A stretch of 61,484 bases of DNA, counting the filler, from Jimgerdemannia flammicorona (Eukaryota), in NCBI GenBank assembly GCA_003990765.1. It is 2 parts of 2 records of this genome, joined end to end, with 100 filler letters (N's around TTAATTAATTAA, not from the genome) between each part and the next. Parts side by side here need not be neighbours in the genome. Positions count along the whole stretch, not along the records: positions 1 to 30,711 come from RBNJ01000430.1; 1 more part is not named here. One strand, written 5' to 3'. The notes under the pieces were generated by a model. It ran no database searches. It worked only from the letters and a program-made list of their open reading frames with translations, and was not told the DNA's origin. Position 1 is the stretch's first letter. Every line of letters begins with the position of its first letter. The position numbers and the translations under genes are program-made. Below, in pieces: positions 841 to 24,930 of the stretch.

Positions 841-954
841 CCATAGTACCGAGCAGATTACTGTTGTCAAGCATACAGCGAAATTTTATGAAGATATGTA
901 AACTTTATAATTTATTATAAAATATAATAAAATAATAAAACAAAAGTGAAGTGA

Positions 955-2128: not shown

Positions 2129-2665
2129 GGTGAACGGCGTGCAGGTGTGCGGCGGCGAGCAGGTGGATGGTGAGCAGGTGGATGGTGAGCAGGTGAATGA
2201 CGTGCAAGTATACGGCGACGAGCAGGTGGACGGTGAGCATGTGAACAGCGAGCAGGTGAACGGCGGACAGGTGGACGGTGAGCTGGTGAATGGCGTGCAA
2301 TTGCACAGAGGCGAGCAGGTGGATGGTGAACATGCAGGTGAGCGGCGAACAGGTGGACGGTGAGCAGGTAAATGGCGTGCAAGTGTACGGCAGCGAGCAC
2401 GTAGACGATGAGTAGGCGAACGGCGAGCAGGTGAACGGCGGGCAGGTGGACGGTGAATAAGTGAATGGCGTGCAGGAGTACGGAGGCGAGCAGGTGGACG
2501 GTGAACAGGTGAACATCGAGAAGGTGAGCGGCGAGCAGGTGGACGGCGAGCAGGTGAATGGCGTGCAAGTGTACGGCGGTGATTATGTGGACGGTGAGCA
2601 GGTGAGCGGGTGAATGGCAGCGAGACCACGAGCAGGTGAATGGCAGCGAGACCACAAGCAGGTAA
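2129..2665. repeat. 15-bp minisatellite (GGCGAGCAGGTGAAC/GAC, with periodic GGCGTGCAAGTGTAC variant)
   Basis: Roughly 35 degenerate units; inverted copies of the unit (CACCTGCTCGC-like) at 1496-1547. Confidence 0.9.
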
Positions 2666-3679: not shown

Positions 3680-4271
3680 TTTTATATTAAACTCAAAAGA
3701 GATAATTACAAAAATAGCTTTCAATATATATAAGTAATTGCCTATAACTATATATACAGATATCTTCAAACCTAAGACTAAAGTTTCTGACAAGACTGTG
3801 AGAAATAGAATTTCTAAGAAATATAGTTGTAAGTAGTTTATTTATCTCAATTATAATAATAAGAATACTAAATATATGATCTTATATATATTACTTACTC
3901 ACAACTATAAATCTCTTCTATCAAAGCTCATATACTATATTTCTGCTAATTATAAAGCCTCTAAATATATATATGTATATATTAAGAATAAGATTTATTT
4001 TATATAATAAGTCAGAATTACTATTAGTAATATTTAGTTATTACTTTTTATCAAGTATAGTACTGATATAAAGAGTTAAATCATTAAGAATATTTATAAT
4101 ATTATTATTAGTAATCAGTTAACTTGATAGAATTTTCAAGCATAGAACATTCTTATACTCCTTAAGTATAAATATAATAAGAATACTAAATTTGCTTACA
4201 AATTTGAGCTGAATGATCAATAATAGCTCATATATATCATATGGACATTTTTGTAATAAAAATAAATATAT
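3680..4271 (+). pseudogene. Heavily decayed MULE/FAR1-like transposase remnant (target of element A)
   Basis: Manual translation gives a C.WFI...THN(Y/H) FAR1-like motif and KFAYKFELNDQ..LIYIIWTF. Appears to continue for a few codons after 21627. Confidence 0.4.
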
Positions 4272-4436
4272 TGTCATGTAGTGGTCACTGAGTCCTTCAA
4301 ATATACCAAATTCTCTTCAAGGTGTATCTCTTAGACTAACTCAAGTTTGTTATAAGTAAGTTCTTATTGGAGTGCCTTCCCAAGGTCTTATAGTCCTCAA
4401 ACTTCTTATCTTTAACTATCTTGTTATCTGAGATAA

Positions 4437-5078
4437 TAGAGAAGGAGGAAGGCCCAGCAGGAGCCAAGGGAGCAAACCTAGAGCCAGTGTCAAAGTGAAC
4501 AGAAGACATGTGGAAAAGCATGTATAAGGGGGACAAATAAAGAATGTAACCGAAAATACATCAGCTGTTTATTGCCATATAAAAACGTAGTCCTTATATA
4601 CAAAATACAACATCTCAAAAGGGAGGATGTGCCATAACTCGAAGTGAACCAAATTAGAAACCATATGACTGCTGGAGATAAGTAGAGATAAAGAGAGAAC
4701 CAATCCCAGTTGTAGGATAAAAATCACAAACAAACACAAACAAAACAAATCCAAATTGGTATTTGTTTTATTTGTATTTGTTTGTAATTTTTATCCTGTA
4801 ACTGGGATTGGCTTCTCTTTTATCTTTACTTATCTCTGGTGGTCATGTGGTTCCTAATTCGGTTTGCCCCGAGTTGTAGCACATCCTCCCTTTTGGGACA
4901 TCATATTTTATATATAAAAACTGCATTTTTATATGGCAATAAATGGCTGATGCATTTTTGGTTATATTCTTTATTTGTCCCCCTTATATGTACACACTCT
5001 TCCATATATCTTCTATTCACTTTGACACTGGCTCTGGATTTGCTCCCTTGGCTCCTGCTGGGCCTTCCTCCTCCTCTA
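4437..5078. repeat. 642-bp near-perfect palindrome (foldback/MITE-like) inserted in LTR1
   Basis: TAGAGAAGGAGGAAGGCCCAGCAGG...CCTGCTGGGCCTTCCTCCTCCTCTA, centre ~4755. Arms differ mostly by transitions. Absent from LTR2 and LTR3. Confidence 0.92.
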
Positions 5079-5388
5079 GTGCTCCCAAACAAGTCAAATC
5101 GAGTTGGGGATTTTTCAATTCAAATCAATTCGAATTAAATTAAAAGTCAAATCAAATTGAGGGTCTGATTCGAACCCTAATTTTCAAAATGCAATAACTC
5201 AGCGTAAACTCATCCAAATCTAACTTACTTTAGCTTGTTAGAATCACATTAATACAGTGAATCTAACAAGCTAAAATATGTTAAATTTAGATGAGCTTTC
5301 GTCGAGTAATTACATTTTGAAAATTAAGGTTCAAATTAGAATTAAGTTTGAGCCAAATTTGATTCAATTCGATTCATTGGGAGCACTA
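5077..5388. mobile_element. hAT-family MITE, copy 1
   Basis: TIR TAGTGCTCCCAA / TTGGGAGCACTA, AATCG/ATTCG-type subterminal repeats, internal ~140-bp hairpin. Confidence 0.88.
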
Positions 5389-5559
5389 GTTATCTCTTAG
5401 ATTGCTTGCAAGGAAGTGTGTATTTGTGAACCAGAACTGACTTTATTTCAGAGGAAATAAGAGGGGTATTTATATAAAATATAATTCAATAGTTGCTAAG
5501 ATATAAAGCTAAATATAAATTCCAATAACTAAAACTACTAAGTTCCAGAGTTGATACTG

Positions 5560-5705
5560 ATGGTTGTACAGGTTCAGGATGCTGGTATAATTCAGTGTTA
5601 TGTCAGAATACCAGTGCTGGCATTATTCAGTATTATCTCAGAATGCTGGTGTTGGTATTATTCAGTATTATCTCAGAATGCTGGTGCTGGCATTATTCAG
5701 TATAA
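5560..5705. repeat. ~30-bp tandem repeats in the family A LTR, upstream (element sense) of the TATAAATA box
   Basis: GAATGCTGGTGCTGGCATTATTCAGTATTA-like units; copy number differs between LTRs. Confidence 0.7.
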
Positions 5706-7081
5706 TAAAGAACTTAGAGTAGAAAGTTTAGGATCATGGGGGCTTCATCCTCATTATTACTGAAGGAGATGATGAGATCCACAAATTCATCATTGTCATC
5801 ATCATATAGGTCATGCATCTCATGTATATTGTGCAGAATGACATCATCACCGATAACATCATCATGTTCAGCAGCGGGGAAATCAGGGGCTCTCCAATCT
5901 ATAAGGTTCTCTTCTACAAAATAAGGAACAAATGTGGGGTCTTGGGGGGGTCTAACCTGGATGCTTGGGCCTTAGAATACTGAGATCAATCCTTATAGGA
6001 ATTGGTCTAGGTTGTCCTGAAGGATGGGATGCCAGAAGTCTTCTACTTCATCACTATTGAGGGTGATAGTGGACTGGACTTCTGTAGCCACCCTGGCTTT
6101 TAGTGCATTGATATGGTGGAATAACAGATCTCTGAAATCTGAGACTCTAATATACTTCAAGTTGGGGATTGACCATGGTGCATGCCTGAAGATCTGATGG
6201 ATCTTCTTAGCTATCCTCATTTCATATATATCCATAGGAGTGGCATCTTGTAGCTCTTGAGTGCTGGCCTGTGGGAACTCCTGGTAGAGGAGGTTTCCTA
6301 TTTCATACTCCTGCCACATTTGGAGATATTCAGTAGCAATAGTGATCTTGGTTTCCATTTCATAACAGTAGAGGATATAGTGATAAGGGTCACTAGTACC
6401 CAGGTTGATACTAGGAGTCCTTCGTGAGTGAGTTCTCATAGTTCTTCTGATGTCTTGGAACATCCTTTCTTCAACTGAAGTACCTTGGTGGTTCCTTGAT
6501 CTTGAGATTTGGCAGACAGCAGGAATTTTATTTGTGGTAAGTCTTTGAGCTATTTTGGGATTAGTGGGTCTTATTGATTGCTATTACTGTAGTTTCTTGA
6601 TCCTTTTTTTATATTCCTCAAGATACTCATACTGTGGTCACAATGACTCACAGTTGGTCATCATTGCTCATCTTGTATGCTATATGATCTCCTTATACTT
6701 CAATCTGGTGACTTGTGAGAAAAGGCTGTCTCCTGTACTGATGTTATCATTCTGAGATCACCATTATATCTTCCTTCTGAATAAGGATCTTCTTGAGCAT
6801 CCTTATTCATTAGTCCAGTCCTGAAAAATTTGCTGATCCTATAACCTCTGGCAAGGAGTTGAAAAGTGATATTTATAAGCTAGCATCTTCTCTTTGTATT
6901 TTGGTATGATGGTGAAGAGTCACTCCCTTCATATAGAGTAAGGGCCTGATTCTGATCTTGACCAATCAGTTGACAGTTTGAACTCCTCTAACTTCAAAAG
7001 TCTCATAGATAAGTAGTTGCCAGTGCTATATCCCTTAGAGAATGGTCCAGACAGATAGCCTGCTGGTCACAGGACATGCTG

Positions 7082-10000
7082 TTACAATTCACAGACTAGA
7101 ACCTCATGAGCAGTCATTATATTTTGCTTCTCTTGTATAGGTTTGTGGTACTTCTTGAGTCTGTTCCTATATACTATGGTAGGCAGTATGGTCTCTGAGA
7201 TTTTTCTAAGCCAGAAGGTAGTTTTCTTGATATCTTGCACATAGAAGGGTCCTTCCCATTTGGGCTCCAGTTTTCGTGACCATGAGGTTTCTATTATATT
7301 TCAATATAGTAGAATCTTTTTCCAATTTGGATGGGGTCTAAAGTCTTGTGATTCTTTTCTGCATTCTTCCTTATTAGCACTTATAACTTGGTGATATAAT
7401 CTTCAGCCTTCTTCCTAATTTAGTATAGTCTTCAGATTTCTGCATCAATCTGTCTCCAAGTTAGTTCTAGATTTGTAGCTGAGGTTCCATTAGAATCTTC
7501 TTCTCCAAAGAGTAGCTCCCTTAGGGTAAAGTGTATGCTCTGTAACTGTATGTCTCATAGGACAGAGAGAGCAGTTGGGAGATAGTTATCCCAATTCTCA
7601 TATGTCTCTGAAATCTTTGCTAGAATGTTCTTGAGGGTCTTATTAGTTCTCTCTGTTTGTCTATTTTCTTGAGGGTGGTACATGATGGTCTTGATGTGCT
7701 GGATCTTGTATTTCTGATACATTATCTCATAGAATCTATTGACAAATTCTGTGCCATGGTCTGTTGTGATTTGCTTCAGTATCTTGTAGTGGCAGATGAT
7801 TTCTTGGTATAGAAAGTCAGCTATAGAGAGAGCATTGGCTTCTTGTAATGCTCCTGCCTCTATCTATTTGGTGAAGAGGTCTACAATAACTATAATATAA
7901 CAGTTTCCTGATAGTATTACTGGTAGTGGCCCAATGATATCTATTGTAATGTGGTGGAAGGGGATAGACTCAATTCTTGATGATCCAGGTACCTGGTCTT
8001 GCTGATCTTATTTCTGTTTTTGGTACTTATCACACCCTTTGACAAATTGGCACAGGTCTTCTTCCATCTTGGGCCACCATATGGTTCTTCTTGCCTTGTT
8101 ATATATGTTGGTTCCTCCTAAGTGTCCTTGCTTGTGTACTTCCTTCATTACTTAATACTTTTTGTATTTGGGTATTACTAGCTTTCCTCCTTTTCTGAGT
8201 ATAGTGTTGTCTAGTTCAAACTATTTCCAAGTCTAGTTGATGATGGTGATTGTCCAGGGTTCAAGGTGGTTGGGCATCTTTTGCTACCCAAGGTAGCTGA
8301 TTAATCTATAGTATAGCTCCTTATTTATGTTGAATAGTCTTGATGGGGGTGTTTCAGGGTATTCTTGAGAGTATATCAGTATTGGTATTAGTTCTTTCTG
8401 AGCCAGTGCTTGACAGTATAGTCATACTCTTGCAGCCTGTAGATTTATCTGGCATATATTCCTTTGGAGTTCAGGGTGTGGAATAGCCAGGCAAGGGTGG
8501 AATGGTCTGTTTGAATAGTGAAGTGTTTCTCAGCTAGGTAGTAGTGGAACTTGTCTACTGCCCAAACTACTGCTAAGCATTTGAGCTTGCATGACTTGTA
8601 GTTCTATTCTGCTCCACAGATACCTCAGCTTACATAGGAGATAACATATTCATCTCCATCTTTCTTCTGAGCTAGGACTGCTCCAAGTTCTATAGCACTT
8701 ACATATGTCTGCAGGATGAATTCTAGGTTCCAGTCTGGTCTTCTGAGGATAGGTGCTTGGATCAACCTGGTCTTGAGTTCATTGAAGGTTTCTTGGTACT
8801 CCTTAGTCTATTTGAATTTGGTTTCCTTCTTCAGTAGCTCATAGATAGGTGCTACAATATTGGAATATCCTTTGATGAATCTTCTATAGTAGCTGGCCAG
8901 TCCAAGGAAGGCATAGACTTCTGTAGTTGTTCTGAATCTTGGGTAGACTACAACAGCCTTGATCTTCATAGGGTCTGTGTGGATTCTGGTCTGGTTGATG
9001 AGGTGTCCTAGATAGGTGATTTCTTGAGCTGCAAACTTGCATTTCTTAGGCTTGATGTAGAGGCCATGCTCCTTGAGCTTCTTGAGGGCTAGCTGTATAT
9101 GATTGACATATTTCTGTGCAGTGTTGCTGAAGATGATCACATTATCAACATAGACAAAGAGCCATTTTCCAATCTTGTTGCTGAAGACTCTATTCATCAT
9201 TCACTGAAAACTTGCTGGAGCATTGTACATTCCAAATAGCATTCACAGGTAGATATAGGTGGTATTAGGTATGATGAAGGCTGATTTCTCACTGGCATCT
9301 TGAATGAGACCAATCTGATGGAAGCCTGAGAACAGATCCAAAGTGGTGTAGTATTTGGCTTCACTTCCAAGGGTGGTAAGGATTTCTTGAATATTTGGTA
9401 AGGGCTGCCTATCCTTCTTGGTGATGGTATTGAGCTTCCTGTAGTCAATGCAAAGTCTTGGCATGAACTCTTCAGGCTTGCTTCCTTTCTTTGGGGCAAG
9501 GACAATGGGTGAGGCCCAGGGGCTGATAGCTTGCTTGATAATTCTGGCTTCTTCTATTTCCTTGAGTTCTGCTTGCAGCCATTCTCTGTAAGCAGGTGGT
9601 ATGGGTCTGGCTTTCTGGTAGATGGGCTTGGTATCACCAGTGTCAACTTCATGGTAGTACTTGAGTTCTTGATTGTGGATATCCCTAAAGTCTGTAGCAA
9701 GTATTCCTTTATTCTGGTGCAGGATCTTGAGAAGTTGTTTCTCTAGGGGAAAGTTTTCTCCAATAGTATGTATATGCTTGTTCTGGTCCTTGTCTTTCTT
9801 GTGCTCAAGTTTGGTAATCTTAGTGGCAGTATAGGCTCCTCTTCCTATAGATCCAAAGCCTTGTTCTCCTCTCTTGGTCTTGATGAGTTTGATGGCTTCT
9901 ATGATCTTAGGCTTCTTGATTTCGTGGATCAGCATCTGGCCAATCCTGTCATGCTTCTTGACTTCAAAGGGAGTGGTGTAGTTGTGATTTCTGACTATGA

Positions 10001-12775
10001 GAAAGATCTTGCCAGTGTAATCAGGGTCAATTACTCCTCCTTCAACTGAGATTTCGCTTTTGGCCAGACTGCTCCTGGTCTTGATAATTTCGGCATGGTT
10101 CTCTGGCAGCTTGACTCCAATTCCAGTGCTAAGTAGAGTAGTGGTCTATGGTTCAAGAGTAGCATCTTGAATGCTGGCAAGGTCCATTCCTATGGCTCCT
10201 TTGGTCTTGTATTCTGAGATCTTGGCTTTGGGGTGAAACTTCTTGACCTTGAGAGTGATGTCTGATTCTTATTCCTCCTTGTCATCACTGTCAGCCTGAA
10301 GCTCTGGGGGCTGGTCATCTTCTTTGGCTTTCCTTTTTGCTTTGGCAGCTTCTTGCTTATATTTTTATTGGCAGATTTTTCTGACTTCACTGATATAGGA
10401 CCAGCAGTCATTCAGTTGTTCAGAGCAGTACATTTTAGTACTATGGGGGCATCTTTCTTGAGGGGCATAGCCATTGATGATCTTGTTGTACCACTGCTCA
10501 TCTGTGAGCTTGGGTGTCTTATTCTTATTCTTGTTCACTGAGTGCATAAAGACCTCTGTATCCTCTTCATCTTCTTCCTCTATGTCTGGTAGGACTTCTT
10601 TGTGGACATTGATAGAGACTTGTACCTTTCTTCCTCTATAGTTGATCTGTATCTTCTGGGCATTGAGATCAATGATGGCCTTGGCCTTGTGAAGCTATTG
10701 GTTGCTAATAAGGATGTCATAGTTGGTGGTACTTATGACAATCATGTCTACTGGGATGATAGCTCCTCCTATCTTAATGGGGACTTCTCAGATTTTGCTA
10801 AGGAGGGTAGCTCATATACTATCTGCTGTGACATAGACCATCTTGATAGACTCTTCAATGTCCCAGCCTAGGTGGTCAATTGCCTTCTTACTCATGAGGC
10901 ATTCTCCAGCACCAGTATCAATGATGGCATCAAAGATACAGTCTTCAATCTGATATGGGGTATAGGCTGATGTCTTGTACTGGTCTTCAGATTCTTCACC
11001 TGAGTTCTTGGATTCTTTCTGTACATTGTGAGCTTCTACAATCTTATACTCTTGATTCTTGGCAGTAGTTATAAGTCCTACTCTCAACTGCTGTCTGAAT
11101 GCAGAGACTTCAGCTAGTTGTCCAAAAGTAGCATTGACCTTCTGTTCCTTGAGGTTCTTGTAGATATCATACTGGTGGATCTTGGTCTTGCACAGCTTCT
11201 GTTCCTTCTTACTTTTGCTTTCTTCTGAGACTGGAGTAGTACCTTCAATGATTTAGCAGGCAGCTTTATCTAACTCTATATCTTGATCAATCTCCTCAGG
11301 TTGGGTCTTGCTTTGAATAGTGATAGCTGGGGTCTTTTTTGGTCTTCTAACTGGCTTGATGTTGCTCTTCCTGTCATAAGGCTTGGACCAGGTTCTGGTA
11401 CCTTCAGTAGTAGGGTAGAATTCAAGCTTCTCATAGTATTCTTCATTATCAGTGTCACCAATCTTCTCGATGACTACTGTATTGGTTTGTTCTCTGGTTC
11501 TGCTAGCATTGCTTGGTTGAGTTTTGTGTTTTGTTTCAGTCATGCAATTCTTTGCATAGTGGCCTTCTCTACATCTGAAGTATGTGATATTGTATTCTTC
11601 TGTAGCAGCTGCAAATCTCTGCACTGGTCTCCTATTGGTGCTTCAGACTTCTCTAACAACATCACCAAGGTGTACAGTCATCTCAGCAAACTGCTTGGTG
11701 AGTTCTTCCACTGGGTCAGCTTTGGTTGCCTTAGGGGTAGGTGGGGTTGATTGTCTGTTTACAACTATGGCAATATGATACTAGTTGACTTTGATGGCTC
11801 CATCTTGATATCAGTTATTTTCTCCATTGAGTGTTCAACAGGGTATCTGGCAGTCCAATATCTCTATACAAAGACTACTTTCTGATCAAGGGTCAGTATA
11901 GCTAGAGTAGACCAGATTGCTAGGGCAATTTCAGGGTAAACTCCTTTGAGAAAGGTTGAATCCACTATTTGTTCCTTGAGGTGGTCATCATAGCCAGCCA
12001 AGACAATCTGGTGACAGATTCAGGTATAAAATGAGTTGGAATCTTCACTAAGTCTCTAGCAGATAGTATTGAGTTGATCCTTGAGAGCTTGCTTGATCTC
12101 TACAATATAATATGTTGTTCTGAGAAAGATCTTCATGTTGGCAAGTTTGGCTGCACCAGCATCAGCAATAGTGGCTGTATTGAACTTGTCTCTGGCAAGT
12201 CCTCTGAGGCTGACTGGTAGAAGGGCCAATTGAGCATCCACACCAAGGGCTCATACAGTGGTGAATTGTTTAAAGTCTTCAATAAAGATCAGAATTGACT
12301 CTTCAGTAGTATATAGTGCTCCCAAACAAGTTGAATCAATTTGAATTGAATCGAATTGAGAGTTAAATGAGTCGAATTGAATTGGGGATTTTTCAATTCA
12401 AATCAATTCAAATCGAATCAAAAGTTGAATTGAATTGAGGGTCTGATTCAAACCCTAATTTTTAAAATGCAATAACTCAGCATAAACTCATCCAAATCTA
12501 ACGTACTTTAGCTTGTTAGAATCACATTAATATGATGAATCTAACAAGCTAAAATACGTTAAATTTGAATGAGGTTTCGTTGAGTTATTACATTTTGAAA
12601 ATTAAGGTTCAAATCAAACTTTGAATCGAATTGGACCTTTGATTCAATTTGAATCAAATAGAATTGGACCCTTGATTCGATCGAATCAAATTGAGTTTGG
12701 GCCAAATTCGATTTGATTTGATTCATTGGGAGTACTAGTAGTATATCCATAGAATGTGGGGGGACATATTTCCAT
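7082..12775 (-). pseudogene. Family A copy 1 gag-pol (gag, CCHC, protease, dUTPase, RT, RNase H, integrase), many stops
   Basis: AIIDTGAG, SPWASPIVL, RLCIDYRKLN, VYVDN (YxDD mutated), WEGPFY. Confidence 0.95.
12314..12737. mobile_element. hAT-family MITE, copy 2, inserted in gag
   Basis: Same TIRs. 8-bp TSD GTAGTATA at 12306-12313 and 12738-12745; the empty site is visible in copy 2 at ~19989. Confidence 0.95.
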
Positions 12776-12895
12776 CTTGTCTTGAATTCTTGCAGGGGTG
12801 ACTCTTGTAGTCAGGGTAGTTTTTGTGGGGATTGTTCATTTTTTAGCTTAAAAGTGAGGGATTCATCTTGAATCACCAGCCAATAGGTACCAAGT

Positions 12896-14447
12896 TGTCA
12901 CATAGTGGTCACTGAGTCCTTCAAATATACCAGATTCTCTTTAAGGTATATCTCTTAGACTAACTCAAGTTTGTTATAAGCAAGTTCTTATTGGAGTGCC
13001 TTCCCAAGGTCTTATAGTCCTCAAACTTCTTATCTTTAACTATCTTGTTATCTCTTAGATTTCTTGCAAGGAAGTGTGTATATTGCACTAAGAGGAACTG
13101 ACTTTATTTCAGAGGAAATAAGAGAGGTATTTATACAAAATACAATTCAATAGTTGCTAAGATATAAAGCTAAATATTAATTCCAATAACTAAAACTACT
13201 AAGTTCCAGGGTCAGTACTGATGGTTGTACAGGTTCAGGATGCTGGCATTATTTAGTGTCACATCAAAATACTGGTGCTGGAACAATTTTGTATCACCTC
13301 AGAATACTAGTACTGGCATTATCCAGTGTTACATGAGGATACCAGTGCTGGCATTATCCAGTGTAATAAAGAACTTAGAGCAGAAAGTTCAGAATCATGG
13401 GGGCTTCATCATCATCATCATCATCATCACTGAAAGAGATGAGATCCATGAATTCATTATGTAGGTCATGCATTTTGCATATGTTATGCAGAATGATGTC
13501 ATCACCAATGACGTCATCATATTTAGCTATGGCAGGGAAATCAGGAACAAGGAGATCTGGAGCTCTCCAGTCTATGAGGTTCTCTTCCACAAAATAGGAA
13601 ACAAATGTGGGGTTTTGGGGAGGTCTAACCTAGATGCTTGGGCCTTGGAATACTGAGATCAATCCTTGCAGAAATTGATCTAGATCTAGGTTGTCTTGGA
13701 GGATAGGGTGCCAGAAGTCTTCTACTTCTTCACTGTTGAGGGTGATAGTGGACTGGGCTTCTGTAGCCACTCTGGCTTCTAGTACATTGATACAGTGAGA
13801 TGACAGGTCTCTGAAGTCTGAGACTCTAACATACTCCAAGTTGGGGATCAACCATGGTGCATGCCTGAAGATCTGATGGATCTTCTTAGCTGTTCTTGTT
13901 TCATATATATCTATGGGAGTGGCATCTTATAGCTCTTGGGTACTGGCCTGTGGGAACTCCCAGCAGAGGAGGTTTCCTATTTTGTACTCCTACCATATTT
14001 GGAGGTATTTAGTAGCAATGGTGATCCTTGTTTCCATTTCACAGTAGTAGAGAATAAAGTGATAAGGGTCTGCAGTACCCAGGTTGACACTAGGAGTCCT
14101 TCTTGAGCAGGTCTCTATGGCTCTTCTGATGTCTTAGAACATCCTTTCCTCAACTGAGATATCTTGGTAATTCCTTAACCTTGAGGTTTGGTGGGTAGCA
14201 GGCATTTCATTTGTGGTAAGTCTTTGAGCTATTTTGGGATTGGTGGTTCTTGTTGGTTACTGCTATTGCAGTTTCTTGATCCTTCTTTTATATTCTTCAG
14301 GATGCTTGTGCTGTAGTTACAATGACACACAGTTGGTCATCATTGCTCATCTTGTATGCTGTATGATCTTCTTATGCTCTGATCTAGTGGCTTGCAAGGA
14401 AAGGCTGTCTCCTGTACTGATGTCATCATTCTAGGATCACCATTACA
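12896..14447 (-). repeat. Family A LTR (shared middle copy)
   Basis: TGTCACATAGTGG...CATTACA, with a PPT on one side and a PBS-like site on the other. Confidence 0.95.
13375..14205 (-). pseudogene. Uncharacterised ~277-codon ORF inside the family A LTR (also 5714-6526 and 20556-21384)
   Basis: MPA..QTSR...MFQDIRR...EAPMILNFLL*. One frame is kept in LTR1 and LTR2 despite an 18-bp net length difference. The stops seen are transition-derived. Confidence 0.75.
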
Positions 14448-14760
14448 TCTTCCTCCTGAATAAGGATCTTCTCAAGTATCCTTATTCATTGGTCCAGTTC
14501 TGAAAAATTTGCTGATCCCATAACCTCTGGCAAGGAGTCGAAAAGTGGTGTTTATGGGCTGACATCTTCTCTTTGTATTTTAGTGTGATGGTGAAGGGTC
14601 ACTCCCTTTATATAGAGCAAGGGCCTGATTCTGATCTTGACCAATCAGTTGATGGTTCGAACTCCTCTGACTTCAAAAGTCTCATAGATAAGTAGTTGCC
14701 AGTACTATATCCTTTAGAGAATGGTCCAGACAGATAGCCTGCTGGTCACGGGACATGCTG

Positions 14761-17700
14761 TTATGATTCATGGACTAGAACCTCACAGGCAGTCATCACA
14801 TTTTGCTTCTCTTGTATAGATTTGTGGTACTTCTTGAGTCTGTTCCTATGTACCATGGTAGGCAGTATGGTCTCTGAGATTTTTCTAAACCAGAAGGTAG
14901 TTCTCTTGATATCTTACACATAGAAGGGTCCTTCCTATTTGGGCTTCAGTTTTCGCAACCATGAGGCTTCTACCATATTTCGATACAGTAGAACCTTTTC
15001 TCCAATTCAGATGGGTTCTAGGGTCTTGTGATTCTTTTCCGCATTCTTCCTTATCAGCACTTGTGACTTAGTGATGTAATCTTCAGCCTTCTTCCTGATT
15101 TGGTATAGTCTCTAGATTTCTGCATCAACCCATCTCCAAGTTAGGTCTAGATTTGTGGCTGAGGTTCCATCAGAATCTTCTTCTCTGAAGAGCAGCTCTC
15201 TTGGGGTAAAGTGTGTGCTCTGTGACTATATGTCTTGTAGAATAGAGAAGGTAGTTGGGAGGTAGTTATCCCAATTCTCATATGTCTCTGAGATCTTTGC
15301 TAGGATGTTCTTGAGGGTCTTATTGGTTCTCTCTGTTTGTCCATTTCCTTGAGGGTGGTACATGGTGGTCTTGATGTGCTGGATCTTGTATTTCTGATAC
15401 ATTACCTCATGGAATCCATTGACAAATTCTGTTCTGCAGTCTGTTGTGATTTGCTTTGGTGTCTTGTAGCAGCAGATGATTTCTCAGTATAGGAAGTCAG
15501 CTATAGAGAGGGCATTGGCTTCTTGTAATGCTCCTGCCTCTATCCATTTAGTGAAGAGGTCTACAATAACTATAATATAGTGGTTTCCTGATAGTGTTAC
15601 TGGTAGTGGTCCAATGATATCTATTGTGATGTGGTGGAAGGAGATAGACTCAATTCTTGATAATCCAGATGCCTGGTCTTGCTGATCTTGTTTCTGTTTT
15701 TGACACTTGTCACACCCTTTGACAAATTGGCACAGGTCTTCTTCCAGCTTGAGCCACCACATGGTTCTTCTTGCCTTGTCATATATGTTGGTTCCTTCTA
15801 AGTGTCCTTGCTCATATACTTCCTTCATTACTTGATACTTCTTGTGTTCAGGTATTACTAGCTTTTCTCTTTTTCTGAGTGTAGTGTTGTCTAATTCAAA
15901 CTGTTTCAAAGTCTGGTTGATGATGGTGATTGTCCAGGGTTTTAGGTGGTTGGGCATCTTCCACTGCCCAAGATAGCTGATTAATCCATAGTATAGCTCC
16001 TTATTCATGTTGAGTAGTCTTGATAGGGGTGTTTCAGGGTATCCTTGAGAGTGTATTGGCATTGGTGTTGATCTTTCCTGAGTGGTGCTTGACAGTACAG
16101 TCATACTCTTGCAGCCTGTAGATCTATCTGGCATATATTCCTTTGGGGTTCAGAGTGTGGAATAGCTAGGCAAAAGTGGAATGATCCATTTGAATAGTGA
16201 AGTGTTTTCTGGCTAGGTAGTAGTGGAACCTGTCTACTGCCCAAACTACCACTAAGCATTCAAGCTTGCATGACTCATAGTTCTGTTCCGCTCTGCTGGT
16301 ACCTTGGCTTGCATAGGAGATGATATATTCATGTCCATCTTTCTTCTGAGCTAGGACTGCTCCAAGTCCTATAGCACTTACATCTGTCTGTAGGATGAAT
16401 TCTAGGTTCCAGTCTGGTCTTCTGAGGATGGGTGCTTGGGTCAACCTGGTCTTGAGTTTATTGAAGGTTTCTTGGTACTCCTAGATCCATTCGAATTTGG
16501 TCTCTTTCTTCAGTAGCTCATAAATAGATGCTGCAATGTTGGAGTATCCTTTGATGAATCTTCTGTAGTAGCTGGACAGTCCAAGGAAGGCATGGACTTC
16601 TGTAGTTGTTCTGGGTCTTGGGTAGGCTGCAACAGCCTTGATCTTCATGGGGTCTGTGTGGATTCCAGTCTGGTTGATGAGGTGTCCTAGGTAGGTGATT
16701 TCTTGAGCTGCAAACTTGCATTTCTTGGGCTTGATGTAGAGGCCATGCTCCTTGAGCCTCTTGAGGGCTAGCTGTATGTAATTGATATATTCCTGTATAG
16801 TATTGCTGAAGATGATCATATCATCAATATAGACAAAGAGCCATTTTCCAATCTTGTTGCTGAAGACTCTGTTCATCATTTGCTGGAAACTTGCTGGGGC
16901 ATTATATATTCCAAATGGCATTTGCAGATAGATATAGGTGGTATCAGGTGTGATGAAGGCTGATTTCTCACTGGCATCTTGAGTGAGACCAATCTGATGG
17001 AAGCCTGAGAACAGATCTAAGGTGGTGTAGTATTTGGCTTTGCTTCCAAGGGTGGTAAGGATTTCTTAAATATTCGGCAAGGGCTGCCTATCCTTCTTGG
17101 TGATGGCATTAAGTTTCCTGTAGTCAATGCAGAGTCTTAGTGCAAACTCTCCAGGCTTGCTTCCTTTCTTCAGGGTAAGGACAATGGGTGAGGCCCAGGG
17201 GCTGATAGCTTGCTTGATGATTCTGGCTTCTTCCATTTTCTGGAGTTCGGCTTGCAGCCACTCTCTGTAGGCAGGTGGTATGGGTCTGGCTTTCTGATAG
17301 ATAGGCTTGGTATCACTAGTGTCAACTTTGTGGTAGTACTTGAGTTCTTGATTATGGATATCCCTAAAGTCTGTAGCAAGTACTTCTTCATTCTGGTACA
17401 GGATCTTGAGAAGTTGTTCCTCTAGGGGAAATTTTTCTCCAATGGTATATGTGTGCTTGTTCTGGTCCTTGTCTTTCTTGTGCTCAAGTTCAGTAATCTT
17501 GGTGGTGGCATAGGCTCCTCTTCCAGTAGATCTAAAGCCTTGTTCTCCTCTCTTGGTCTTGATAAGTTCAGTGGCTTCTATGATCTTGGGCTTCTTGATT
17601 TCGTGGATCAGCATCTGGCCAATCCTGTCATACTTCTTGACTTTGAAGGGGGTGGTGTGGTTGTAATTTCTGACTATGAGAAAAATTTCGCCAGTGTAAT

Positions 17701-20026
17701 CAGAGTCAATTACTCCTCCTTCAACTGAGATTTCGCTTTTGGCCAGACTGCTCCTGGTCTTGATAATTCTGGCATAGTTTTCTGGCAACTTGACTCCAAT
17801 TCCAGTGCCAAGTAGGGTGGTGGTCTGTGGTTCGAGGGTAGCATCTTGGATACTGGCAAGGTCCATTCTTATGGCTCCTTCAGTCTTGTATTCTGGGATC
17901 TTGACTTCAGGGTGAAACTTCTTAACCTTGAGGGTGATATCTGATTCTTATTCCTCCTCATTGTCACTGTCAGCTTGAAGCTCTGGGGGCTGGTCATCTT
18001 CTTCAGCTTTCCTTTTTGCTTCAGCAGCTTCTTACTTATGTTTCTGTTGGTGGACTTTTCTGACTTCACTGATATAGGACCAGCAGTCATTCAGGTGTTT
18101 GGAGTAGTACATTCTAATACCATGGGGGCATCTTCCTTGAGGGGCATACCCATCAATAATCTTGTTATACCACTGCTCATCTGTGAGCTTGGGTGTCTTG
18201 TTCTTGTTCTTGTTCACCGAGTGCATGAAGACCTCTGTATCTTCTTCATCTCCTTCCTCCATGTCTGGCAGGACTCCTTTGTGGACATTGATAGAAACTC
18301 ATATCTTTTTTCTTCTGTAGTTGATCTGCATCTTCTGGGCATTGAGGTCAATAATGGCCTTGGCCTTGTGAAGCCATTGGTTGCCAATGAGGATGTCATA
18401 GTTGGTGGCACTTATAACAATCACATCTACTGAGATGGTAGCTCCTCCTATCTTGATGGGGACTTCTCGGATTTTGCCAAGGGGGGTAGCTTATGTACTG
18501 TCTGCTGTGATATAGACCATCTTGGTGGACTCTTCAATGTCCCAACCTAGGCAGTCAATTGCTTTCTTGCTCATGAGGCATCCTCCAGCACTAGTATCAA
18601 TGATGGCATCAAAGATACAGTCTTCGATCTAGCAGGGGGTATAGGCTGATGTCTTATGCTGGTCTTCGGATTCTTCACCTAAGTTCTCAGATTCTTCTTG
18701 TGCATTGTGAGCTTCTACAATCTTGTACTCTTGATTCTTGGTGGTAGTTGCAAGTCCTACTCTCAACTGCTGTCTGAAGGCAGGGACTTTAGCTAGCTGC
18801 CCAAAAGTGGCATTGACCTTCTGTTCCTTGAGATCCTTGTAGATGTCATACTGGTGGATCTTGGTCTTGCACAGCTTCTGTTCCTTCTTGCTCTTGCTTT
18901 CTCCTGAGACTGAAGTAGTGCCTTCAATAATTTGGTGGGCAGCTTCATCTAACTCCATGTCTTGATCAATCTCCTTGGGTTGGGTCTTGCTTTGAATAGT
19001 GACAGCTAGAGTCTTCTTTGGTCTTCCAACTGGCTTGCTGTTACTCTTCTTGTCATAGGGCTTGGACTGGGTTCTGGTACCTTCAGTAGCAGGGTAGAAT
19101 TCGAGCTCCTCATAGTATTCTTTGTCATCAGTGTCACTGATCTCCTCAATGACTACTGCATTGGTTTGTTCTCTGGTTCTGCTAGCATTGCTTAGTTGGG
19201 CTTTGCATCTTGTTTTGGTCATGCAACTCTTTGCATAGTGGCCTTCTTCTCCACATCTGAAGCATGTAATATTGCATTCTTCTGTAGTAGCTACAAATCT
19301 CTACACTGGTCTCCTGTTAGCACTTCAGACTTCTCTAACAACATCACCGAGGTGTGCAGTTATCTTAGTGAACTACTTGGCAAGTTCTTCCACTGGGTCA
19401 GCTTTGGCTGTCTTGGGGGTAGGTGGGATTGGTTGTCTGTTTATAACTGTGGCAGGTAAGATACTAGTTGGCTTTGATGGCTCCATCTTGATGCCAGTTA
19501 TTTTCTCCATTGAGTGTTCAGCAGAGTGTCTGGCAGTCCAATATCTCTGTACAAAGACCACTTTCTGATCAAGGGTCAGTATAGCTGGGGTAGATCGGAT
19601 TGCTAGGGCAATTTCAGAGTGAACTCCTTTGAGGAAGGTTGAATCTACTATTTGTTCCTTAAGGGTATCATCATAGCCAGCCAAGACAATCTGGTGACAG
19701 ATTCAGGTATAGAATGAGTTGGGATCTTCACTAAGTCCCTGGCAGATAGTATTGAGTTGATCCTTGAGAGCTTGCTTGATCTCTTTGGTATAATATGTTA
19801 TTTTGAGGAAGACCTTCATGTTGGCAAGTTTGACTGCATCAGCACCAGCAATGGTGGCTGTATTAAACTTATCTCTGGCAGGTCCTCTGAGGCTGACTGG
19901 TAGAAGGTCCAATTGAGCATCCACACCAAGGGCTTGTATGGTGGCAAATTGTTCAAAGTTTTCAATGAAGGTCAGGATTGACTCTTCAGTAGTATATCCA
20001 TAGAATGTGAGGGGACATATTTCCAT
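14761..20026 (-). pseudogene. Family A copy 2 gag-pol, many stops
   Basis: Zinc knuckle CFRCGEEGHYAKSC, VYIDD, LQTDVS RNase H, HHCC integrase region, IDIIGPLP. Confidence 0.95.
17525..17925 (-). CDS. dUTPase domain within family A pol (second copy ~9845-10245)
   Basis: Five motifs in order: GAI(R/G)MDL, TRSSLA, GGVIDSDYTGEI, DRIGQM, RGEQGF(G/R)STG. Confidence 0.93.
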
Positions 20027-20121
20027 CTTATCTTGAATTCTTGCAGGGGTGACTCTTGTAGTCAGGGTAGTTATTGTGGGGGTTGTTCGTTTTTCAGCTT
20101 GAAAGTGAGGGATTCATCTTG

Positions 20122-20143
20122 AATCACCAGCCAATGGGCACCA
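20122..20143 (-). promoter_or_regulatory. Primer binding site of family A (TGGTGCCCATTGGCTGG...)
   Basis: TGG 3 nt from the LTR end, with the same site beside the middle LTR. Loosely resembles a tRNA-Gly(GCC) complement with a 2-nt bulge; tRNA identity is uncertain. Confidence 0.6.
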
Positions 20144-20146
20144 AGT

Positions 20147-21626
20147 TGTCATGTAGTGGTCGCTGAGTCCTTCAAATATACCAGATTCTCTTCAAGGTGT
20201 ATCTCTTAGACTAACTCAAGTTTTTTATAAGCAAGTTCTTGTTGGAGTACCTTCCCAAGGTCTTATAGTCCTCAAACTTCTTATCTTTAACTGTCTTGTT
20301 GTCGCTTAGATTGCTTGCAAGGAAGTGTGTAAGTGAAACCAGAACTGACTTTATTTCAGAGGAAATAAGAGGGGTATTTATACAAAATATAATTCAATGG
20401 TTACTAAGATATAAAGCTAAATATAAATTCCAATAACTAAAACTACTAAGTTCCAGGGCTGACATTATTTAGTATCACATCAAAATGCCAGTGCTGGCAT
20501 TATCCAGTATTACATAAGAATACTAGTGCTGGCATTATCCAGTATAACACAGAACTTAGAGCAGAAAGTTCAGGACCATGGGAGCTTCATCCTCATCATC
20601 ATCATCACTAAAGGAGATGAGATTCGCAAATTCATCATTTTCGCGTGCTTTGTTATGCATCTCACATATGTTGATGTTGCATGGGATGACATTATCACTG
20701 ATGACATCATCACATTTGGCTGTGGCAGGAAAATCGGGAATAAGATCTAGAGCTCTCCAGTTCTCTTTCACAAAATAGGAAACAAATGTGGGGTCTTGGG
20801 GAGGTCTAACCTGGATGCTTGGGCCTTGGAATACTGAGATTAATCCTTGCAGGAATTGGTCTGGATTGTCCTGAAGGATAGGGTGCCAGAAGTCTTCTAC
20901 TTCTTCGCTATTGAGAGTGATAGTGAACTGGACTTCTATAGCCACCCTGGCTTCTAGTACATTGATATGGTGGGATGATAGGTCTCTGAAATCTTAGACT
21001 CTAACATACTCCAAGTTGGGGATCGACCATGGTATATGCCTGAAGATCTGATGGATCTTCTTAGCTATCCTTATTTCATGTATATGTATCTATGGGAGTG
21101 GTATCTTATAGCTCTTGGGTGCTGGCCTGTGGGAACTCCCAGCAGAGGAGGTTTTCTATTTCATACTCCTGCCACATTTGGAGGCATTCGGTAGCAATAG
21201 TGATCCTTGTTTCCATTTTATGGTGGTAGAGAATGAAGTAATAAAGGTCTGCAGTACCCAGGTTGACACTAGGAGTCCTTCTTGAGTGGGTTCTCATGAC
21301 TCTTCTGATGTCTTGGAACATCCTTTCCTCGACTGAGATACCTTGGTAATTCCTTGACCTTGAGGTTTGGTGGGCAGCAGGCATTTTATTTGTGGTAAGT
21401 CTTTGAGCTATTTTGAGATTGGTGGTTCTTGTTGGTTGCTGTTACTGCAGTTCCTTGATCCTTCTTTTATATTCTTCAGGATGCTTGTGCTGTGGTCACA
21501 ATGACTCATGGTTGGTCATCATTGCTCATCTTGTATGCCATATGATCTTCTTGTGCTCCAATCTAGTGGCTTGCAAGGAAAGGCTATCTCCTATGCTAAT
21601 GTCATCATTCTGAGGTTACCATTACA
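20147..21626 (-). repeat. Family A LTR (5' copy)
   Basis: TGTCATGTAGTGG...CATTACA. Confidence 0.95.
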
Positions 21627-22779
21627 ATATATAGCTACTACTATAATATTATATATCTCAGAGAGACCTCTTATAAGGACCAGAACCTTGTCTTTATTGC
21701 TGATATACTTTTAAGAAATTCATCTGATTTATCAGATTATTGAAATGCTTAGTATATTTATAAATACTTTTCTTAAGTTTTATTCATAAATTAAATAGTT
21801 GAGATTTAAGATAAAATTAATTTGATGAGAATGCTTTTATATAATAATTATATAGAATCTTCTATACATTATAGACTTTTATAATATATATATATTATAA
21901 GCTTTATTTGCTAGTTTAATAATATAAAAGTAATCTCTCATAATACTCAATAGTTATTTATAATATTATAATCTTGAATCTATACTTATAGTTTTATATA
22001 CTCTATCAATCTATACTTCTTTAGAAGATTACTTATATGAAATATCCAAATGATATAATCCTTATCATCAAAGACTGGGATGGACCTCTTGACTATATTT
22101 ATGCTTACTGTGAGAACTGTGGCTACCATTATATTTATATTAAAAGTATTCATACTAGCTATATTTGATATTTTAGTATAGTATATATATTTAGAAGATT
22201 ATATTATAGCTACTTAGTACTAGTAGAACTCATAACTTTTGTTATAAATATGAAGTAAATATTGAAGAAAAGGAGGAGGAGGAGTATTATTTATTATTTC
22301 AGATAGTATTATAGAGGTATATATCTAAAAATTGATGTATTTTAATAGATGAAATTCTTATATAACTCTACCATTAGCCATTAATAGAAGAAGTCTACTA
22401 TGAGCTACTATATACTTAATAATTAAGTATATAGAAGCTTTTAGTAGACCTTTTCTACAAAGATTACTTAGATATTATAATAGAATTTTCTAGTAAATAG
22501 CAAGAATATATATAAATAATAAGAGGTTGAGAATGACAAAAGTAGTTCTGAAATCTTGAATAAATATATATATATTACCAAGGATTAGATATCCAAGGAA
22601 TATCACATATGATAAGTTACTTTTCAAGATTTCTCAGTAGTCTTCAGATATATTTTTTAGTAAAAATTCTTAGTAAGCTATTCATATATCCCCAATAAAT
22701 TCTTTCTAATAACTGCTTATTTCCATGCTCTATTTATAATTATTTTCTTATCAATAATTTCTGTATAATTTTTATATTG

Positions 22780-24900
22780 ATAGAGATATTGAGGAAATTC
22801 TTCAAAATCAAATATTTGTAAGCAAAACTTACAACTATACCAAGATGTTATAAGGAATACTACTATATTATACTAGTATATATTATAAAAATATCATCTC
22901 ATTTTTCAAAGATCTGGAGATATATATAGTCAATTACTATATCTGTGTTATTAATGAGAAGGTTGAAGTACTCAAGGCCTATCTGTATAATGAGACCTTA
23001 ATAGTGACCAATAGTATGATATCCAGTATGGCTAATCTCTTTAGTTTGGCCACTGGACCTATCTATGAAGCCATCAAAAACTATGTTATCATACATTTTA
23101 CTCAGAATCAAAGTCTTATGGCTCTCAACATTGGCCTTAACAATATTCAAATTAGCCCAGGAGAGAGTTCTGTTATATTCTAGGTCTATATATAGAAGAA
23201 CTATAATCTATATAGTATAACAATATAGGAGTTAAGAGAGCAAGCCTTCTATCAGAGAGCTATGAAGGTTTATGATAGTTAGATATGACAAAATTACCAG
23301 AAAGGCTTCAATGAGATACTCTTAGTAGCCCAGAATGTATAAGAAGACTATACTAAGTAGATGGATATATTCAGACCTACAATTTATACCCCAAAGCTAC
23401 CTCTCTTTATTGCTGACTCTATGTCAATACTAAGAATACTAGTGAACTCTTTGATGGCTTACTTAATAGAGCTCTAGGTAATAATAGCAATAACTAGTAC
23501 TTATATAGTCTAACTAATAGCTATACTAAGCAATGATAACTTAATAGAAATAATCAAGAAGGCTGCCAGCATTACAGTAAGTAATAAGATATAGTAGATT
23601 GATAATAGGTTACAATAGATAGAACAAAAGCATACTCTAGTTGGTATCTTAAAATGCTACAAATATAGAGAAATTGATTATATGACCAGGTTCTATCTTG
23701 CTTATAATTAGAGAGACAACAAAGGTAAAGGTCTTACTACTGGCAGTAATATCATCTCAGTTCAAACAATGTCCACAGCTAACTATATGAGAGATATAAT
23801 GGAGGTTTATCTCATTAAAAAGAATTTCTGCTTCAATCCGATAGCCAAGAGGATATATAGAGTAAAGGTGGTAGCAGCTTTAGCCAGCTAACTAAAAGAA
23901 TCAAATGAGATCAAGGCAGAAGATATTATGATGAAAGAAGAAGTACCATGGAGTAAGTCAGTCACTGAGATATTCTTTCTTCCTGCCCCAAAGAAAAAAA
24001 AGACCCAGGGACCCTGTCAGTAATATAGTATGATCAGTATGATAAATGATATAGAATCTTACTCAATTATGATCTTTTTGGCTAGAATACCTACTGATAT
24101 CACCTATGAATAACTTCTGGCTCTTTTGTCAATTGCTTATAAAGAGTTCTAGCAAGGGTTATAAAGGAAAAAAAAAAAAAAAAAAAAAAAAAAAAGGTTA
24201 TAAAGGAGTATCATTATAGTAGAACCAGCAACTAAACCTGAACTCATTATAGAGCCAGAATCCATAACCTCTATATAGCCTACTATCTCTATAGTAGGTA
24301 CTCCAAAACTGACCATGGCTCTGTATAGTGATATAAGATTAGTAGTATGAAATATGAGATAATCCTCAATACCAAGGCTTTGGAGAACTGCATCCTAGAG
24401 CATATATGTAGCTAAAATAATAAAATGAGCAATCAAATCTACAAACCTAGTAGTAAGTATAGTCAATAGAGCCCTATACTCATGAGATATAGTAGAAGGC
24501 CTAAGGATAAAGGTCAGTACTAAGAAGTACTATTTAAATACTATTATATTTCCAGATATCTCATTGACTACTATTCTGATTAATACAGTCTGGCTGCAAT
24601 CAAAAGACATAAATATCTGCTTGGATACTATATAGTTAGTTCTTAGAGATAGCAATAATATTTTAGTTTGGACTGACACTCAATTAATATGGGTTAAGGA
24701 TATTGATAATAATGATGGTGATAGTAATAATAACTGAGCATATACTATAACTGTAGATATAGGCTCAGATCTTGATAAAGACTAGTTATATAATCTTATA
24801 TTTATGCTAAATTATACTCTATTTGCCAACAGAATAGAAGACTTCAGATACTATACCCTCATTTAGCATAGATGATGTAACTCCAATTTAGTAAAAGATA
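22780..24900 (+). pseudogene. Extremely decayed Ty3/gypsy gag-protease remnant (family D)
   Basis: Decayed zinc knuckle at ~23653 (CYKYREIDYMTRFY, from CxxCxxxGHxxxxC) and ILNTKA (~ILDTGA) at ~24362. Confidence 0.55.
24168..24195 (+). mobile_element. Poly(A)-only retrotransposition insertion
   Basis: A28 flanked by direct repeat GGTTATAAAGG (24157-24167, 24196-24206). Confidence 0.8.
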
Positions 24901-24930
24901 TATATATCAGCTTAGTCTTAGAAAGTAATT

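Follow-up and report, generated by a model that had tools for sequence, protein, structure and literature searches.

Can the long terminal repeat (LTR) of a retrotransposon carry a protein-coding gene of its own? The question is raised by a Ty3/gypsy array in the soil eukaryote Jimgerdemannia flammicorona (assembly GCA_003990765.1), in whose three LTRs one and the same sense-strand open reading frame (ORF) recurs. We analysed the array within a stretch of 61,484 nucleotides, filler included (hereafter the window; two records joined end to end, positions 1–30,711 coming from RBNJ01000430.1), and conclude that the frame is very probably a real, selected element gene residing in the LTR. Four independent kinds of evidence, namely substitutions, indels, composition and relatives, support a gene. 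As a whole, the locus is best explained by a genuine accessory gene of a dUTPase-bearing Ty3/gypsy lineage, with a regulator role and expression routes that we infer, an account to which we give moderate credence.

One sense frame recurs in three LTRs

In LTR2, the middle LTR of the array, the ORF copy (13375..14205, minus strand) runs from an ATG at 14205 (MPATHQ...) to a TAA at 13377–13375. This frame of 276 codons plus stop is broken by 4 in-frame stops, at codons 24, 72, 93 and 190, and matches our profile hidden Markov model (HMM) at 429.6 bits. The LTR1 copy (5714..6526, minus strand; 425.0 bits) has 2 in-frame stops and an ATG changed to ATT, with 195 codons still open at 5993–6580. The LTR3 copy (20556..21384, minus strand) has 2 stops and one frame-shifting 4-bp insertion; the profile HMM matches both of its halves, in two frames.

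A preliminary description of this DNA had claimed a protein-coding sense frame inside the LTR in all three copies, and alignment, the ratio of non-synonymous to synonymous substitution (dN/dS), indels and relatives bear this out. Its details also hold: the distance from MFQ to the stop is 750 bp in LTR1 (6463 to 5714) and 768 bp in LTR2 (14142 to 13375), DNLDQF versus DNLDLDQF is a 6-bp difference, and LTR3 does carry a 4-bp frameshift. It had assigned the frame over half of a 1.5-kb LTR; the frame stands, and the LTRs measure about 1.64–1.71 kb, so that it occupies about half of each. A further proposal, that the frame once extended upstream almost to the LTR start, fails on two counts. Three stops before the ATG are common to all three copies, and all five relatives (of 14) that reach the N-terminus start at the same MPxxR.

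The ORF is in sense orientation and wholly contained in the LTR, where it begins at a distance of 243 bp from the start, beyond the polypurine tract. Being present in both the 5′ and the 3′ LTR, it has the LTR-resident arrangement of the sag gene of mouse mammary tumour virus (MMTV). It does not have the arrangement of the additional ORFs (aORFs) of plant elements: it does not lie between the LTRs, and it is also found in the 5′-most LTR3, which abuts unrelated flank.

Substitutions, indels and composition point to a protein

Across the three pairs of LTRs, which are the copies on which all our dN/dS values are based, Nei–Gojobori (NG86) dN/dS was 0.26, 0.38 and 0.36 in frame, and 0.90–0.96 and 0.60–0.71 in the other two frames. 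Nearly all changes are transitions, which inflates NG86 dS, so we also computed omega from transitions only, against the possible synonymous and non-synonymous transitions. This gave 0.39, 0.59 and 0.57 in frame (Fisher p 5e-5, 0.03 and 0.02) and 1.4–1.95 off frame. Differences between LTR1 and LTR2 fall on codon positions 1, 2 and 3 in the proportion 39/31/64. When element A was compared with element B, the two members of the array, pol and gag gave NG86 values of 0.24–0.56 and transitions-only values of 0.45–0.66 in three of four segments, with 1.18 in the integrase segment. The dN/dS of the LTR frame lies in the range of these pol and gag values, so that the ORF bears the mark of purifying selection and is as constrained as pol.

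Indels tell a similar story. Within the frame, 9 of 10 events are multiples of three (6, 9, 3, 18, 6, 12, 3, 6 and 3 bp, the tenth being the 4-bp insertion), and in the remainder of the LTR one event of five is. The binomial chance of at least 9 of 10 at an expectation of one third is about 4e-4, as calculated by hand. The check that had been proposed for this locus, run on the three window copies, therefore returned in-frame ratios well away from about 1 and indel lengths that are not random. In addition, the G content of the ORF is 0.285, 0.126 and 0.152 at codon positions 1, 2 and 3, and its third-position C (0.318) is similar to that of pol (0.352). The LTR stretch after the ORF stop shows no such codon-position periodicity.

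Open relatives define a new protein family

Related proteins with open frames occur in metagenome protein sets. A word-indexed search recovered 5 open proteins among 112 candidates, at 55–80% identity and 161–271 amino acids (aa). An exhaustive HMMER search of 1.84 billion representatives, made with a profile of the close lineage only, returned 5 proteins, 3 of them distant (P0010 at E 1.5e-44, P0011 at E 9e-35 and P0012 at E 7e-11). A second profile round returned 11 proteins, of which P0013, P0014 and P0015 were new. In total there are 14 different relatives, including the cluster members P0007 and P0008, in four lineages at 27–80% identity to window-type sequences. Their lengths reach 342 aa (P0011), with 325 for P0013, 271 for P0003, 247 for P0002 and 214 for P0010.

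The order of motifs is common to these proteins, and MPxxR opens all five that reach the N-terminus (P0003, P0010, P0011, P0013 and P0014) as well as the LTR2 copy. Frames of 200–342 codons could not otherwise stay open at such divergence, which argues for long-term selection. All 14 relatives are metagenome ORFs in small clusters, and none comes from the annotation of a named genome. Among 8000 scored candidates no fused or longer form appeared at E up to 0.001, which is weak evidence. Pfam has no family for two window copies (E up to 0.1) or for three distant relatives (E up to 0.01), and a sequence search of the PDB gave no match at E up to 1. Judged by sequence comparison, the LTR protein founds a new family, represented in soil eukaryote DNA by at least four lineages.

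Scans for the DNA of the relatives gave 0 of 47 in viral contigs and 0 of 65 in genome contigs. One metagenome locus (L001, 1 of 250 pattern matches, with 30% identity over 78 residues) was dropped as a chance match; its ORFs are unrelated low-complexity frames.

The window copies are dead and their stops private

The three copies in the window are dead, through transition stops, a lost start and a frameshift. To compare them with the open relatives we read the broken frames with X at each stop and built no consensus. All 6 stops of LTR1 and LTR2 align with glutamine in open relatives (in one case glutamine or arginine), as expected of CAR-to-TAR transitions.

Metagenome contigs from four public runs allow two of the LTR2 stops to be compared directly; these positions, 14136 and 13929, are the LTR2 stops among the 40 differences listed, with 1461 further differences. 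At both, nearly all contigs read G, which restores a glutamine codon. The G depth at 14136 is 1353.8/1380.7 in run X1, 211.4/230 in X2, 68.7/68.7 in X4 and 75.3/75.3 in X5, and at 13929 it is 878/916.8, 107.2/121, 4.82/9.17 and 36.3/36.3 in the same order. By these contigs, and for the two LTR2 stops compared, the window's stops are private to its own copies.

The element itself is abundant in soil metagenome runs, with 6557 contig pieces in X1, 1180 in X2, 469 in X4 and 601 in the run labelled 'organism A'; the best-matching run may stem from the very sample that yielded the window. Differences between the window and the contigs of X1 are dominated by transitions (A>G 238, G>A 200, T>C 165 and C>T 152, versus 53 transversions). 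In all 4 runs, contigs are about 2–3x deeper over the LTR and its ORF than over the internal region; such depth cannot rank the parts and was not used as evidence.

The decay has left a clear footprint. The observed/expected ratio (o/e) of CpG is 0.01–0.08 in the gypsy elements, 0.21–0.28 in the long interspersed nuclear element (LINE)-like copies and 0.99 in the non-repeat stretch 1–4200. This depletion indicates that the gypsy elements have undergone C-to-T decay at CpG, the fate expected of methylated repeats. The sequence context of the C-to-T changes is confounded by the near-total loss of CpG and does not separate repeat-induced point mutation from methylation. The open relatives are also touched by loss of arginine: P0014 departs from P0013 mainly in having C, H or W in place of R (MPPTCRSNQTSHHS versus MPPTRRSNQTSRRS), and the window copies share the pattern (LYRRE to LYYCE, LYCYE or LYHHK). 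This CGN-codon decay suggests that some database 'proteins' of the family are themselves decaying copies.

Two tandem dUTPase-bearing Ty3/gypsy elements share the middle LTR

The window is a nest of retroelements in which the gypsy array, on the minus strand, extends from about 21.6 to 4.3 kb. By self-BLAST and three-way alignment it resolves into two tandem Ty3/gypsy elements, A and B, that have the middle LTR in common. LTR3 (19988..21626, minus strand), delimited by both methods, is the 5′-most LTR of the array and the 5′ LTR of A. The internal region of A (14448..19987, minus strand) contains gag (zf-CCHC), dUTPase, reverse transcriptase (RT) and integrase, placed by Pfam and motif coordinates. 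LTR2 (12737..14447, minus strand), at once the 3′ LTR of A and the 5′ LTR of B, starts with TGTAATGG at 14447; its 3′ edge is approximate. An insertion of about 420 bp that is foreign to the element (12315..12736, no strand assigned) separates it from the internal region of B (6771..12314, minus strand), in which self-BLAST and Pfam place dUTPase, RT and integrase. LTR1 (4271..6770, minus strand), the 3′ LTR of B, contains an insert of about 950 bp at 4430–5385, and its 3′ end is missing. Pairwise identity among the three LTRs is 84–90%.

The LTR starts with TGTAATGG in LTR2 and LTR3 and with TATAATGG in LTR1. Directly before the start of LTR2 lies the polypurine tract AGGAGGAAGA (14448–14457), and a purine tract likewise precedes LTR1; the start of LTR3 adjoins unrelated AT-rich flank (21627 onward), not a purine tract. 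The 5′ border is firm, since the repeat begins after a purine tract in two copies and after unrelated flank in the third. The 3′ border is uncertain by some bases, as an insertion follows LTR2 and LTR1 is truncated at its 3′ end. The insertion after LTR2 is bounded by a 10-bp duplicated flank (12314 matches 19997, and 12737 matches 19988). It is palindromic and resembles a miniature inverted-repeat transposable element (MITE) of about 250–420 bp, with 12406–12666 self-inverted at 79%. A 90% copy of it lies at 5092–5336, within the separate insertion of about 950 bp in LTR1, which indicates that the same small MITE-like element struck this gypsy family twice within 8 kb.

Several features assign the array to Ty3/gypsy: direct LTRs, a polypurine tract before the 3′ LTR and the order gag zinc knuckle, RT, integrase. 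In element A, on the minus strand, the order is zf-CCHC (18629–19300), dUTPase (17066–17947) and Integrase_H2C2 with rve (15484–16149); RVT_1 was matched in the B copy. The dUTPase (PF00692) was matched at E 2e-26 in A and 3e-18 in B, with RVT_1 next in the same frame, and Pfam places dUTPase at residues 2–99 and RVT_1 at residues 230–295 of one pol frame. A dUTPase directly N-terminal to RT is the domain order of the dUTPase-bearing gypsy elements of the PosPlaTy3-5 and Juno/Vesta type, an assignment that we make from domain order and not from phylogeny. Such elements are reported in basidiomycetes, Tuber and bdelloid rotifers, and the dUTPase positions given in the cited passages include one between protease (PR) and RT (PMC2864245, PMC5408684). 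No Pfam match to a protease was found in the frames scanned. Nor was a chromodomain, the mark of chromoviruses, found (E up to 0.01) when three frames were scanned between integrase and LTR in A, B and the second gypsy element described below; decayed copies could hide a degraded domain. In a protein atlas, the RT/RNase H matched Streptophyta and Basidiomycota clusters at equal score.

A basic head, a predicted helical core and an acidic tail

The family's proteins are about 250–340 aa long and consist of an arginine-rich N-terminus, a predicted helical core, a central motif and a strongly acidic tail studded with aromatic residues and leucine. The central motif, FWxPILQDNxDQFLQGLxxxFxGPxI...PQDPxxxPYF, is nearly invariant. 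Charges were counted in 6 proteins. Their first 45 residues have a net charge of +1 to +8, with 4–10 lysines or arginines. Over the last 70 residues the net charge is −15 to −17 where the protein ends with the tail (P0002, P0003 and P0013) and −4 to −8 in three others, of which P0010 and P0014 end before the tail and P0011 (−8) runs beyond it. W, F and L residues recur in all four tails (P0002, P0003, P0011 and P0013); the tail sequence of P0013 is itself not conserved.

AlphaFold2 models were built for P0003 from a 15-row alignment (mean predicted local distance difference test (pLDDT) score 56.4, predicted template modelling (pTM) score 0.48) and for P0013 from a 13-row alignment (48.0 and 0.38). 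Low in confidence as they are, the two models are alike. Each predicts an N-terminal arginine-rich helix and helices up to about residue 150, best at about 130–160, followed by a helix over PDQFLQGL, a beta hairpin over PQDPxxxPYF...IxW and a disordered tail. The helical core and acidic tail anticipated in the preliminary description are thus consistent with the predicted secondary structure and with the charge counts. The search by AlphaFold and Foldseek that it had suggested yielded this layout at low pLDDT and no fold match.

Foldseek returned 0 matches for the P0003 model at E up to 0.001 in the PDB and 0 in BFVD. A wide VIA-align search peaked at Z 6.1, with 3 chains at Z of at least 5 among 48161. 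Many of its rows at Z 4–6.1 are helix-turn-helix proteins (TetR, AraC and sigma-factor region 4) aligned at residues ~56–115, values that fall within the background of Z under 8–13 for helical models. The ESM Atlas offered no lead, with a best feature score of 0.83 and a structure TM of at most 0.33.

How the gene might be expressed and what it might do

The LTR has this internal order: a 242-bp leader with TATAAAAG, the ORF, the 35-bp repeats, TATAAATA, AATAAAG and the end. The word TATAAAAG (14285..14292, minus strand), 80 bp upstream of the ATG, is a candidate promoter for an ORF-only mRNA; it is kept in LTR3 (21464–21471) and has one base changed in LTR1, giving TATAAAAA (6606–6613). About four tandem 35-bp repeats just past the ORF stop (13241..13364, minus strand) look enhancer-like. 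Their number varies among LTRs and contigs, with 35- and 31-bp gaps in LTR3 and contig joints that skip 31, 77 and 102 bp. Then TATAAATA (13128–13135) is followed some 20 bp on by AATAAAG (13102–13108), presumably the genomic promoter and poly(A) signal (13102..13135, minus strand). TATAAATA is kept in LTR1 (5467–5474) and LTR3 (20375–20382). AATAAAG lies about 270 bp past the stop codon, and about 370 bp remain from there to the LTR end. By the positions of these motifs, the border between the unique 3′ (U3) and repeat (R) regions would fall at TATAAATA/AATAAAG, which would put the ORF in U3, in agreement with the preliminary description.

Since the ORF lies downstream of the polypurine tract, it is copied into both LTRs by reverse transcription, and a solo LTR would keep the gene. 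Two routes of expression can be envisaged. The ORF could have its own mRNA of about 1.2 kb, starting at TATAAAAG and ending at the LTR's AATAAA, or the 3′ part of the genomic RNA could supply a subgenomic or spliced message for it, the way in which retroviral 3′ accessory genes are expressed. The protein could be a nuclear trans-acting regulator that either activates transcription from the LTR or counteracts silencing. Among possible functions this fits best, if weakly, with a basic head, a helical core and an acidic aromatic tail, and we put forward a transcriptional or anti-silencing role as a tentative suggestion. A bolder version, which we regard as unlikely, would make every LTR, solo LTRs included, a self-contained gene with a TATA word, an ORF of 250–340 aa and a poly(A) signal, whose product would act in trans on the LTRs of the family by activation or by blocking silencing. 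If true, the thousands of LTRs left behind by recombination would stay helper genes, and the regulator would sit in the part of the element that survives deletion. We did not find such a strategy described for LTR retrotransposons in the open-access literature.

Several observations weigh against a regulatory accessory gene. The window holds a second dUTPase-bearing Ty3/gypsy element (34570–44922, plus strand), with dUTPase, RT/RNase H and integrase between LTRs at 34570–35912 and 43512–44922. These LTRs, of 1.35–1.4 kb and 88% identical, have 18–26 stops in every sense frame and no profile HMM match to the LTR protein. The gene is thus dispensable for dUTPase-bearing gypsy elements, being the accessory of a single lineage, not a general feature. 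Three of the indel events fall within or next to GAT runs, where slippage by threes occurs in any case, and this weakens the indel argument somewhat. Gene callers pass over broken frames, which makes the open relatives an ascertained subset of a larger number of copies. The relatives are known as proteins only, and the distant lineages need not lie in LTRs, or indeed in retrotransposons. TATA-like words are common in this AT-rich window (141 matches). Finally, the models are weak (pLDDT 56.4 and 48.0, and 0.35 for the Atlas model), and neither fold, Pfam nor PDB supports a DNA-binding or activator role.

Other explanations of the locus differ in how much of this they can absorb. If the genomic RNA were transcribed from TATAAAAG, the ORF would belong to R, not U3, and would form the first cistron of that RNA, with a short ORF mRNA made through the 5′ LTR's own poly(A) signal. 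Plant Ogre elements, which have an ORF1 ahead of gag, provide a parallel. Such a layout would account for the position of TATAAAAG 80 bp before the ATG and its retention in two of three LTRs (with one base changed in the third), for an AATAAAG about 270 bp after the stop codon, and for the three common stops upstream of the ATG, which fit an untranslated leader. We nevertheless consider it rather unlikely: the succession of 35-bp repeats, TATAAATA and AATAAAG resembles the usual U3 enhancer, promoter and start of R, an R of about 1.2 kb would be very long, and gag would need reinitiation or splicing. The protein might also do another job. It could be an adaptor for RNA export or packaging like Rev/Rex, its arginine-rich N-terminus binding RNA and its C-terminal ...ILNFLL, rich in leucine, acting as an export signal, or a trafficking adaptor working through the acidic DLISF/DLINF/DLITF that recur in it and which we take to resemble clathrin-box or SUMO-interaction motifs. 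The basic N-terminus (4–10 K/R in the first 45 residues of 6 proteins) agrees with this, as do [DN]LI[STN]F in 11 of 15 alignment rows and an ...LN[FI]LL end in 9 of 15, with LNFTI inside the longer P0011 tail. However, short motifs and a composition of this kind often arise by chance, neither DLISF nor LNFLL occurs in the P0013 lineage, whose tail is acidic and aromatic all the same, and it is not obvious why an element without known splicing would require an export factor, all of which makes an adaptor improbable.

Two further readings deny the element any use of the protein. The ORF could be a passenger, that is, a host gene or fragment captured into the LTR and conserved merely through recent copying. 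It has no known retroelement domain, and its sister dUTPase-bearing gypsy element in the window lives without it. In the cited passages, LTR retrotransposons do transduce host sequences (PMC7264820). Recent copying does not explain why four lineages as far apart as 27% identity keep an open frame, the start and the order of motifs, which points to long-term selection at the protein level. The third-position composition also matches pol, all 14 relatives are metagenome ORFs in small clusters with none from a named genome annotation, and no longer or fused cellular form was found among the 8000 scored candidates, this last being weak evidence; we think a passenger has little probability. The remaining reading, that the region is regulatory U3 DNA and its long frame a by-product of base composition or of constraint on the DNA itself, could appeal to the breakage of all three window copies and to the lack of any Pfam, PDB or fold match. 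It would have to accommodate an excess of third-position substitutions, a low omega in one frame only, indels of which 9 in 10 are multiples of three, codon-position periodicity and open relatives of 200–342 aa at 27–47% identity, and we judge it very improbable.

Other features of the window

Three LINE-like copies lie on the plus strand at 24900–31000, 48000–54000 and 55000–61484, with an Exo_endo_phos endonuclease and an RT. They show unusually strong strand asymmetry, with a GC content of 0.51–0.54 and a GC skew of +0.3 to +0.55. Between the gypsy array and the first of them, the stretch 21627–24900 has a GC content of 0.28, a CpG o/e of 0.02 and many TATA-like words; no ORF or repeat family was recognised in it. 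An 841-bp tandem unit occurs at 45512–46352 and 46352–47193 (87%), with a partial third copy at 32802–33258 (89–91%), so that copies of the unit flank the second gypsy element. A weak repeated tblastn match at 46247–46300 (E 2–8) falls inside this unrelated tandem repeat, was missed by the profile HMM and was rejected. Close to the left end of the window, a 271-codon open frame (1930–2745, minus strand) consists of diverged repeats of ~90–175 bp and has a weak Pfam match to extensin-like proline-rich proteins (E 0.0024). It may be a host gene, in the sole stretch of normal CpG (o/e 0.99).

Comparison with known systems

In this position the gene is doubled at each integration and persists in solo LTRs. 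Its neighbour is the element's promoter, the place to expect a self-regulator or anti-silencing factor, and its protein offers a testable candidate for the means by which a retrotransposon family, in a presumably heavily methylated genome, deals with its host.

Among elements with a similar pol, PosPlaTy3-5 of Postia placenta, Tmt1 of Tuber and Juno, Vesta and TelKA of bdelloid rotifers likewise have dUTPase ahead of RT, whereas no LTR ORF is described for them in the cited passages, and the bdelloid ORF3s follow pol internally and are enzymes or env-like (PMC2864245, PMC5408684). Extra ORFs are better known from plant Ty3/gypsy elements, where the aORFs, as far as the cited passages go, are lineage-specific, of unknown function, internal in position (before gag, or after pol and ahead of the 3′ LTR) and in many cases antisense (PMC7264820). 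The brtn gene of the Botrytis element Boty is likewise an extra ORF of unknown function, and antisense (PMC8365987). Like the LTR ORF, these are lineage-specific extra ORFs conserved within lineages; unlike it, they are internal and many are antisense in the passages cited, while the LTR ORF is sense and lies beyond the polypurine tract, inside the repeat. A conserved sense gene wholly inside a Ty3/gypsy LTR was not found in the open-access literature, fungal or plant, and an older report may exist. Papers that speak of an 'LTR ORF' or of what 'LTRs encode' were set aside as precedents, as they use the phrases in another sense.

Retroviruses offer closer parallels, since a few of them have a gene within or across U3. 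The tas/bel genes of foamy viruses and the nef gene of human and simian immunodeficiency viruses are 3′ accessory genes that lie downstream of pol and env and extend into U3. Tas transactivates the LTR, has an acidic activation domain and possesses its own internal promoter, and this layout, an LTR transactivator with its own promoter, is by analogy the one that we propose here. Both tas/bel and nef overlap U3 only in part, whereas the LTR ORF starts 243 bp inside the LTR, and there is no similarity of sequence or fold. In layout, the nearest analogue is the 'LTR ORF' of MMTV, sag, which lies in U3. In both cases a sense ORF sits wholly inside the LTR at both ends of the provirus, as an accessory gene of several hundred codons that is not needed for reverse transcription itself. 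The likeness does not extend to sequence (no Pfam match at E up to 0.1) or to setting, as the present element is a Ty3/gypsy element without env in a soil eukaryote. Sag, a membrane glycoprotein, acts on the T cells of vertebrates, whereas the LTR protein combines a basic N-terminus with an acidic tail.

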